In this document: piece after piece, positions 25,441 to 28,400 of the stretch
Layout: every line of letters starts with the position of its first letter
Numbering within the stretch: position 1 is the stretch's first letter
Assembly (NCBI GenBank): GCA_012295275.1
Contig: CM022678.1
Coordinates: 16,802,001-16,866,000 of the forward strand
Length of the DNA: 64,000 nt
DNA from: Chrysomallon squamiferum
Lineage: Eukaryota > Animalia > Mollusca
Direction: 5' to 3'
Program-made: the position numbers and the translations under genes
The notes under the pieces: generated by a model
Seen by the model: only the letters and a program-made list of their open reading frames with translations
Told to the model about the DNA's origin: nothing
Databases searched by the model: none

Positions 25441-28400
25441 ATGTCCCCGATTATAATTTTGCTGTTTGTTTTATCGCAGACAGGTAAGTGTGTTATGAAT
25501 TCTTTAAAAACGTATTTGAATCTGTGTGCTGCATTTGTCTCTGATGTCTGTATGTGCGTACGCGCGTGCGTATTTTTGGTATCTTAAATATGTAAGAAAC
25601 ACTTAGATGTTTAGGCCACATAAACTAACTTAATACTTTTATATTGTGTTAAAAATAACGACACACTCTAATGAGAAAACTGAGAAAGGGAAACATGATA
25701 TTCAGATAATTAAATTGTAAACTTTGCAGTTAAGTATAAATAAATGAAATATAATCCTAAATCTCGCATCATATATATTATCTACGTATCTATCCATCTA
25801 TCTATCTATATTTTTCTCTACACATATGTAACATGTTTCAAATACACTTCGAGCTAAAATATACCTACATCTGATGAAGAAGAAAAACAAAACAATTACA
25901 GGCTCATCGGAAACTTTGATATAAAAATACATAGAGCAGTAGAATTTATTTCCAGTCATTTGCATTCCTAAATTAAATAATTAAACACATAATGTGTACA
26001 CTTTGTTATTTGTATAATAATCCTTGCTAAATCCTTCTTGAACTTCAAATAACAGCTCAGATACAATTTTAATCTATTGATTAACACAGTAGTGAAAATA
26101 ATTGTAACAGATTTATAATTCTCCCCCACCAAGATAATCTTAATAACGAATTATCACTAGAAATAAGTAGTTTAACAACACTGAGTACAGTATAAAAAAA
26201 ATATCTGGGAGCTGTATTTATTTCTGTATCAGTGAAGTCATTACTTATAGGACGTATCTTTTTGCTCTAAAGCAGAGGTCGGTAACCTTGCCGCTAGGGA
26301 CATCAGTAGACTTTATTTTGTGACTATTGTGGGCGCTTTGCTTTTTGGGGTAGATCGCAAATTTAGACTTGGTGATTCCCTTACCTATGTAAAGCCATGA
26401 TCTCTTATTTTTCTTCTCTCTCTCTCTGTTTTTTTTTTTTTCTTTCTTTCTTTCTTTAGCTTTTTTTTTTTTTTTTTTTTTTTTTTTTTTTTTTTTTAAT
26501 GTATATATCTTTCAATTATTTTTAAAGAAAATTTACAGTTCTCCGAATTTTGGAAATCTTTTAATAGGTTTTGTAGATTCTATTTTTAGTATGACCCTCG
26601 ATTTGACGCAATTTGTGAGGTGCTAAGCTTCCGTCATATGAGGAACTGTTAAATTTTTAATCATTAAATTTTGATTAATTATTATTTTTTTAGTTCAATT
26701 TCTGTAAATATGATTTAAGTTTGATCCTTTAATTCTGAAATTATTGTGTGCCTGATGGGCGTTCCAACTTTTCACTGTTTGAAATTGGTGATACCTGAAA
26801 AATAGTTACCCTGCAACAAAACCAACAATAGCAAAAAACTCTAAAACCAAATTTAAAAAATAAAAAGAGCAAAGACAACGAACTAATAAATAAATAAATA
26901 AAATAAATAAGTAAGTAAAATTACTCTGAAGTGTATATGTGTGTGCGTCTGTGTGTATGTGTATATGTATGTATGTAAGTTCATATTTAAATATAAGTAT
27001 ATACAATATGACTGTGTTAAAATGTATGTTTCTGTGGGTGTGTATGTTTGTATGTATACATTTACATCGTGAACAATATTTGATATAATGTTTTTTCAAC
27101 TTGTTCAGTTTCAGTTGCGTGTTTCACATGTAAAGACAACTCTGACTTCTGTTACCCCCAAAACTGCGAGCAGGAAAACTATGAGGACTGTATGAAGACT
27201 TGTGAAGTTTGTACAGGTAAAGTTATCAATGTCCCAGCGTAGCAGAGTCAACAAGAGCAGGATAGATATCACAGATAGCTCATATGTTAGTAACGATACA
27301 TACACAGTATAGTTCATATGTTAAGTAAGGATACATACACAGTATAATTGATATGTCCAGTAAGGAGAGATACTCAGTATAGTTGATATGTTAGTAAAGC
27401 TATAGATATAAACAGGATAGTTGGTGCATTATGTAAGCACAGATATACAAAATATTTGGTATGTTAAACGATGATAGCTAACTAGGATATATGAATCATA
27501 TACATGTCTGATAGGATAGATAGCAGATAGGAACGGATTTATTAGGAAGGATATGCATTCAGAAAACAAACTAGATATGTTATTCAGAATTCCATGACAG
27601 CAGACATATTTTAGGTAGGATAGATACGCATGATAGATAATAGCATAAAAAGGAAAGCCACGTATTAGGTAAAATAGCTTGCATAAGTAGGATATGTGTT
27701 CAGGTTACAGCTATGTTCAGATACGATTGATGGATACACGTAATACTTGGTATACGAGTATAATAGATGTACTTGAAATGATAGATATAAAGGACGTAAC
27801 GGCTGGCAGTTTAATACACATACGAACATGCACACACCAAATACAACACAGTCACAAAAACATGAACATTATTAATTTGTGTTAATAAATAGAACGATTT
27901 TTCTTTTTGTACACATGCATACTGAGACACACTATTTCTGTTTTAATTTCAGTAATTCAACATAGTTAATTTCATTTACTCGAGCACCTATCTAGTCTCT
28001 CAATTTATCTTTTAATTACTGCAAATGTGGTAGAAGTGCAAACACACCCTCCTCTAATTCCCTGTAAATTAATACGAGTAATTCTATTTTTAGATGAGGG
28101 GTGTTCTAAGGGTTTTTACCATGGTGATGGCGACACGTGTAAACCCTGTTCTGTCAAAGACACAAAACATTCACCAAATTACAAAGAAAAATGTAATATA
28201 TTTTGTTCCAGTAACAAAACACATGGTAAAGATTGTAATAAGAACTGTACTGACAGATGCTTGGATAAAATATGTTACAAATGGACGGGTGATTGTGAAC
28301 GTTGTCCTTCTGGATTCTCTGGACCACGTTGTAAGCAGCACTGTAATAACACCGACGACAACGGTGACTGCATCGGTGACTGTTTTTCTGGGTTATTTGG

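Follow-up and report, generated by a model that had tools for sequence, protein, structure and literature searches.

Which protein would carry an exon whose ends are identical between paralogues while most of its middle differs, and does that middle diverge under selection? The window analyzed here, a stretch of 64,000 nucleotides from Chrysomallon squamiferum (contig CM022678.1), holds four such exons, in gene copies labeled A, C, D and F (Table 1). As described in an initial annotation of this DNA, the flanks TGTAAAGACAAC and GACTGTATGAAGACTTGT are each present exactly in all four, and exon length changes only in codon multiples; the translations of the four heads given there were reproduced as quoted. 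Each exon lies between an AG and a GT and is phase 1-1. Across the whole window, TGTAAAGACAAC occurs exactly at 7038, 27129, 50972 and 62034; at ≤1 mismatch it has nine matches (chance expectation 0.88), the five that are not exact being CKDK words of EGF exons. GACTGTATGAAGACTTGT has four exact occurrences and still only four when three mismatches are allowed (chance expectation 0.11). Between KDN and DCMKTC, 13 of 14 non-Cys columns differ in the four-copy alignment, the sole fixed one being a Glu, and the segment between the third and fourth cysteines (C3-C4) is acidic in the four heads. Invariant flanks around a variable core are thereby confirmed as a real feature of these exons, and the exon encodes the N-terminal tip, or head, of a duplicated receptor tyrosine phosphatase.

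Table 1. Positions, in window coordinates, of the head exons and of the gene copies and fragments that surround them.
Feature	Position	Strand	Remarks
Copy A head exon	7018..7128 (111 nt)	+	
Copy C head exon	27109..27216 (108 nt)	+	end of signal peptide and six-Cys ShKT-like domain
Copy D head exon	50952..51059 (108 nt)	+	
Copy F head exon	62014..62118 (105 nt)	+	
Copy C first coding exon	25441..25483	+	predicted signal peptide, from hydrophobic sequence
Copy C stalk exon	28094..29284	+	Cys-rich, EGF/MEGF-like, single exon of 1191 nt (397 aa); homologues named MEGF10-like
Copy C transmembrane (TM) exon	29508..29601	+	hydrophobic stretch aligned with membrane segment of P0003
Copy C juxtamembrane exons	30029..31153	+	exon 5 (30029-30138), exon 6 (30729-31153)
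Copy C exons 7-13	31529..35200	+	single PTP domain; PF00102 on 3/3 PTP exons scanned, and motifs
Gene A	signal exon 1492-1534, EGF exon 8025-9215	+	stop 8207-8209, broken TM exon, exon-6 frameshift
Gene D	signal exon 46864-46906, EGF exon 51910-53109, TM exon 54060-54135	+	EGF exon open
Gene F	stalk exon 62976-63787	+	no AG acceptor, stop 63164-63166, shortened
Headless fragment B	15450..19478	+	frameshifted EGF exon, TM, exons 5-6, 12-13 with stop
Headless fragment E	56962..57578	+	frameshifted EGF exon fused directly to last-exon sequence

One whole receptor among decayed copies

Among the copies in the window only C is whole. Spliced at canonical sites, it comprises 13 exons from 25441 to ~35200 and an open frame of 935 aa, which reads in order as a signal peptide, the six-Cys head, a Cys-rich stalk, a membrane helix, an acidic juxtamembrane region and one protein tyrosine phosphatase (PTP) domain. 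The mature N-terminus is a 30-residue head with the stalk directly after it; a Pfam scan of the stalk (EGF) exon gave no match. The combination that defines a classical receptor-type PTP (signal peptide, ectodomain, one membrane helix, PF00102) was found in C only. Its PTP domain carries KNRY, HCSAGVGRT and the Q-loop MVQT, together with WMD in place of WPD, the general-acid loop thus keeping its Asp with the Pro replaced. This WMD loop lies at 33772-33780, and the equivalent position reads WVD in the Gigantopelta aegis protein P0003 and WPD in Haliotis proteins; judged by its sequence, it may lower the phosphatase activity of C.

Stalk length differs between copies C, A, D and F by whole modules of 32-33 residues, and the stalk of C has one module fewer near its start and an extra 96-nt module near its end, compared with the other copies. 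An extra signal-peptide exon upstream of C (22526-22568), intact with its donor, is a possible alternative first exon for C. A second one, at 48586-48628 inside the first intron of D, is broken.

The remaining copies are decayed to different degrees, much of which lay beyond the initial annotation: the in-frame stops in A and F, the broken acceptor of F and the lack of phosphatase exons in D. Gene A is a pseudogene, its in-frame stop lying in the stalk exon, next after the head exon, and so is gene F, for which no signal exon was found in the window. Gene D has an open ectodomain and a membrane exon, ends in exon 6 without PTP exons, and is either a phosphatase-less receptor or a pseudogene. 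Together with the headless fragments, these copies form a birth-and-death cluster.

Other features are interspersed with the copies. A tandem array with a period of ~480 bases (12421-15421) occupies the place where the remaining phosphatase exons of A would lie, and abuts fragment B. Between copies C and D, inverted and direct duplications form a block at window positions 38-45 kb, which contains a DnaJ class B (Hsp40) coding sequence (40887-41945, minus strand, PF01556) that has no introns and one in-frame TAA, at 41784-41786. Intron 1 of A holds a broken integrase-like sequence (3747-4377, minus strand; Integrase_H2C2, E 5e-5), which presumably resembles KRBA2/GIN elements.

The head and its relatives

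A search with the stalk exon returned 12 proteins at E≤1e-30, of which 10 are named, all 10 of them molluscan, and none of the 12 is a cephalopod protein. The G. aegis protein XP_041360433 (P0003) is 41% identical to copy C end to end (992 columns) and groups with it, with support of 1.0, in a ten-sequence tree of the PTP domain in which the position of P0011 was left out of account. The same N-terminal six-Cys head is present in three G. aegis proteins (P0003, P0013 and P0014) and in six from Haliotis (P0004, P0010, P0018, P0019, P0026 and P0044), and was not found in bivalve relatives. XP_041360433, XP_041361330 (P0013) and XP_041362085 (P0014) from G. aegis and XP_046561914, XP_071094625 and XP_046337962 from Haliotis share the architecture described here, six-Cys head included, with P0013, as well as P0026, lacking the phosphatase domain like window copy D. 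Their automatic names ('MEGF10', 'RPTP mu-like' or 'uncharacterized') ignore the head. Galactose-binding/fucolectin Pfam domains are absent from P0003 and weak in the bivalve P0011 and P0012.

In four public DNA runs, 161 bases around the head of D collected 144-184 contig pieces per run, which shows that the head family is large, these counts being of contig pieces and not of gene copies. The legend of Fig. 6 in PMC7895826 places MEGF and PTPRK among the expanded families of G. aegis; the main text of that paper has no occurrence of 'ShK', and the available part of PMC7736800 does not mention expanded MEGF/PTPRK families.

The head had been read at the outset as an ShKT domain, and here sequence comparison through the relatives bore the reading out, while the models left the fold without confirmation. 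In an alignment of nine heads (the four of the window and five from Gigantopelta and Haliotis), all six Cys are invariant in 9/9, stand in the ShKT register and end in C-x2-T-C-x2-C, as in the ShKT family (PF01549; AsK132958, 5wcv; OspTx2b, 6buc); an Asp placed two positions beyond the first Cys is also shared. Pfam ShK (PF01549) matches 5/5 relatives (best E 0.00022) and 0/4 window heads. A profile of the nine heads searched against the PDB has two ShKT peptides at the top, OspTx2b (6buc; E 0.0085) and AsK132958 (5wcv; E 0.027), with which the heads align Cys for Cys, all six in register, AsK132958 being 29 residues long. When 1.84 billion proteins were searched with a profile of seven heads, 52 matched; with P0003 set aside, 40 of the other 51 carry PF01549. 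The ShKT peptides surfaced in the PDB search only after the relatives had joined the profile: with the four window heads alone there was no ShKT match among 11 weak ones, mostly BPTI, and none of the 92 candidates from a homologue search reached E≤0.01.

The ShK fold has two short helices, and ShKT disulfides join C1-C6, C2-C4 and C3-C5. Two AlphaFold2 models of the head reached pLDDT values of 54.8 and 70.8, the better one with a single helix (residues 17-27); neither had a structural match in any of three fold searches, and the ESM Atlas gave no usable match. Because the fold searches with these models matched nothing, the ShKT label is a sequence-based one, and at that level an ShKT-like head is supported. 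The Lys-Tyr dyad, whose functional role in Kv channel block is treated in the available text of PMC5793123, has no conserved counterpart in the four heads, which are therefore unlikely to be Kv blockers.

Divergence of the core

The initial annotation had also proposed diversifying selection on the central residues. This proposal is supported by a gene-wide clock, by the comparison of models M1a and M2a and by a divergence twice that of the intron, but it loses significance under a free local rate, and the ratio for the whole head is ~1.0. The core as first delimited has a pN of 0.45 and a pS of 0.27, and, in line with what had been expected of it, exceeds the adjacent intron 2, with a mean pairwise divergence of 0.147; pN is 0.04 in the frame, and the stalk (EGF) exon has a pS of 0.22 and a pN of 0.13. 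In windows of 15 codons, pN never rises above 0.26 in the EGF exon and reaches 0.39 in the head, and 0 of 600 simulations at the intron rate matched the divergence of the interior.

For the codon models we used sets bounded by cysteines (C1-C4 and C2-C4), so that codons were not picked for being variable, and a model of our own, with tree and synonymous clock held in common, for the four copies, two of them pseudogenes, whose branches would be expected to weaken a signal of selection rather than create one. Measured against the gene-wide synonymous clock, C1-C4 has a dN/dS of 2.0 (p=0.0035) and C2-C4 one of 2.55 (p=0.0007), compared with 0.2-0.5 elsewhere. Model M2a improved on M1a for the head alone with p=0.029, against p=0.17 for the EGF exon alone. 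Family-wide variants, taken from contigs of the four DNA runs with those of <80% identity excluded, so that the most divergent cores are missed, point the same way in their placement: 34/34 variants at a level of at least 12% lie within 12 codons, and none falls in the codons of the six Cys, KDN or MKT.

Other results temper this picture. With a free local rate, dN/dS of the core is 1.8-2.2, above the 0.51 of the stalk (p<0.01) but with no significant excess over 1 (p 0.19-0.24), and the whole mature head gives 1.02-1.07. The interior variants of the family comprise 26 replacement and 6 silent changes, a split that matches neutral expectation (p=1.0); the silent variants are likewise concentrated in the interior (6/29 versus 0/31 possible changes). 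The small sample, four sequences with two pseudogenes among them, also weighs against selection. Silent change is scarce in the frame (1/18 versus 44/151 invariant columns, p=0.045), and head-only site tests are inflated as a consequence. Pairwise similarity along intron 2 changes from patch to patch, with distances down to 0.02 in 50-column windows for A-C and C-D, and the stalk has windows equally low for C-F. The patchwork of the intron and the shortage of silent change in the frame make gene conversion likely, and such recombination would bias the codon-model tests. Position-specific conservation of Cys codons is a feature of conotoxins; in the head it is not significant, since 6/39 Cys columns of the EGF exon mix codons (P(0 of 6)=0.37), and a literature search on the subject had no match.

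The alternative that best survives these results, though we consider it unlikely, is that the core is merely unconstrained, a structural cap with drifting loops, while gene conversion homogenizes the flanks and the stalk. A neutral core with a local rate of 1.8-2.9x fits almost as well, and the family-wide replacement and silent counts, the frame poor in silent changes and the mosaic of the intron all accord with it. However, divergence at codon positions 1/2/3 is 0.44/0.27/0.22 in the interior and 0.13/0.12/0.19 in the EGF exon, so that third positions are close in the two while first positions of the interior are not, and the share of transitions in the interior is 0.27, lower than the ~0.43 given by a faster neutral clock (P 0.01-0.03). 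With dN/dS left free, the fitted local rate is just 1.14-1.16x for the two structurally defined sets. The same contrast between core and stalk is seen in G. aegis, where identical non-Cys residues in three heads number 25/51 in the core and 349/447 in the stalk, the pairs not being independent; Haliotis shows it less strongly (non-identical pairs, core 0.50-0.95, stalk 0.64-0.86), with the core the less conserved of the two in most cases and by a modest margin. Taken together, the evidence for selection is positive without being decisive, and we regard diversifying selection on the core as probable: likely, not proven.

A variable tip and its possible ligands

From the observed anatomy and variation we infer binding of microbes or parasites, expression and function. 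The reading that we favor, with somewhat more reserve than selection itself, is that the residues between the cysteines of the ShKT-like tip diversify under selection and form a surface that recognizes microbial or parasite ligands. Three disulfides and the KDN/CMKTC frame would hold the fold of the head, the EGF-like stalk of ~400 residues would raise it off the membrane, and the variable loops would be presented at the tip, where ligand binding would alter the single PTP domain, which in turn would act on immune signaling. Phosphatase-less members (D, P0013, P0026) could serve as decoys or partners, and the repertoire would turn over by duplication, short gene conversion and pseudogenization.

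It is improbable, in our estimate, that the head varies to escape a parasite, microbe or venom that binds it to subvert the receptor, with the normal ligand on the stalk or frame. Such escape would leave the same selection signal, many copies are broken, and PMC12297450, in its accessible part, takes up how parasites recognize host RPTPs and the loss of EGF domains in resistant snails; a large paralogue family is not needed for escape, however, and the number of contig pieces per run suits a repertoire better. Slightly less probable still is a role of the heads as codes for self or for cell identity, through homophilic or partner-specific adhesion of the kind seen in allorecognition and in neuronal self-avoidance, or as ion-channel contacts like ShK toxins. 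In favor of this option, cell-cell recognition involves receptor phosphatases as well as proteins of the MEGF10/CED-1 type. ShKT domains do include channel modulators, but AsK132958, the solved relative closest in length, was inactive on the Kv channels tested (both from the available text of PMC5793123), the four heads have no conserved Lys-Tyr pair and an acidic C3-C4 segment, and frequent pseudogenization would suit defense families more than wiring genes.

A broader version of the reading in which the tip recognizes microbes or parasites is tentative, and we hold it to be rather doubtful: gastropods would have put the ShK toxin scaffold to use as the recognition tip, variable between members, of a large receptor repertoire in the germline, with a fixed disulfide frame, positively selected loops, shuffling by gene conversion, phosphatase-bearing and phosphatase-less tails, and discrimination among microbes. 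If true, the ShK-tipped repertoire would tell microbes apart, and in vent snails such as Gigantopelta these might include symbionts. Variable EGF-stalk receptor clusters are leading candidates for parasite resistance in snails. Since variability is packed here in one 30-residue, one-exon module that can be synthesized and swapped, ligand specificity is directly testable. The head would also give the ShKT scaffold a role in a receptor, the non-toxin functions of this scaffold being posed as an open question in the available text of PMC5793123.

Beyond the Gigantopelta and Haliotis proteins, two known systems bear comparison. ShKT peptides are secreted, whereas the head is the tip of a membrane-anchored receptor, with shorter loops, no conserved Lys-Tyr pair and, in the window, a sequence below Pfam detection. 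The literature on ShKT in molluscs, gastropods and abalone, searched with most subscription journals, and supplements that could name the domain, outside its scope, gave venom papers where positive selection in gastropods was concerned, and no account of a receptor phosphatase that has an ShKT tip. The nearer likeness is to Biomphalaria, where, according to the available portions of PMC12297450 and PMC13712769, MEGF receptor phosphatases that are clustered and vary in their ectodomains map to schistosome resistance (SudRes1/LG5R MEGF-GBD RPTPs, 'Scavenger class F-like receptors', subgroup 1C); the main texts have no occurrence of 'ShK'. The homologue searches made here had no Biomphalaria sequence among their matches. 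As described there, the Biomphalaria receptors share with copy C a signal peptide, a tip domain, an EGF-like stalk, one membrane helix and PTP, and their clusters share with that of the window tandem paralogues, gene gain and loss, extracellular diversity and phosphatase-less members alongside. The available descriptions give SudRes1 proteins tandem PTP domains, in contrast to the single one of copy C, and a galactose-binding/fucolectin domain at the tip, the mark of subgroup 1C, which copy C does not have; its place is taken by a six-Cys ShKT-like module of 28-30 residues. Variable MEGF-RPTP clusters were thus already known, and head-bearing proteins were already in RefSeq under generic names; the ShKT tip on a receptor of the MEGF-RPTP type is the new element.
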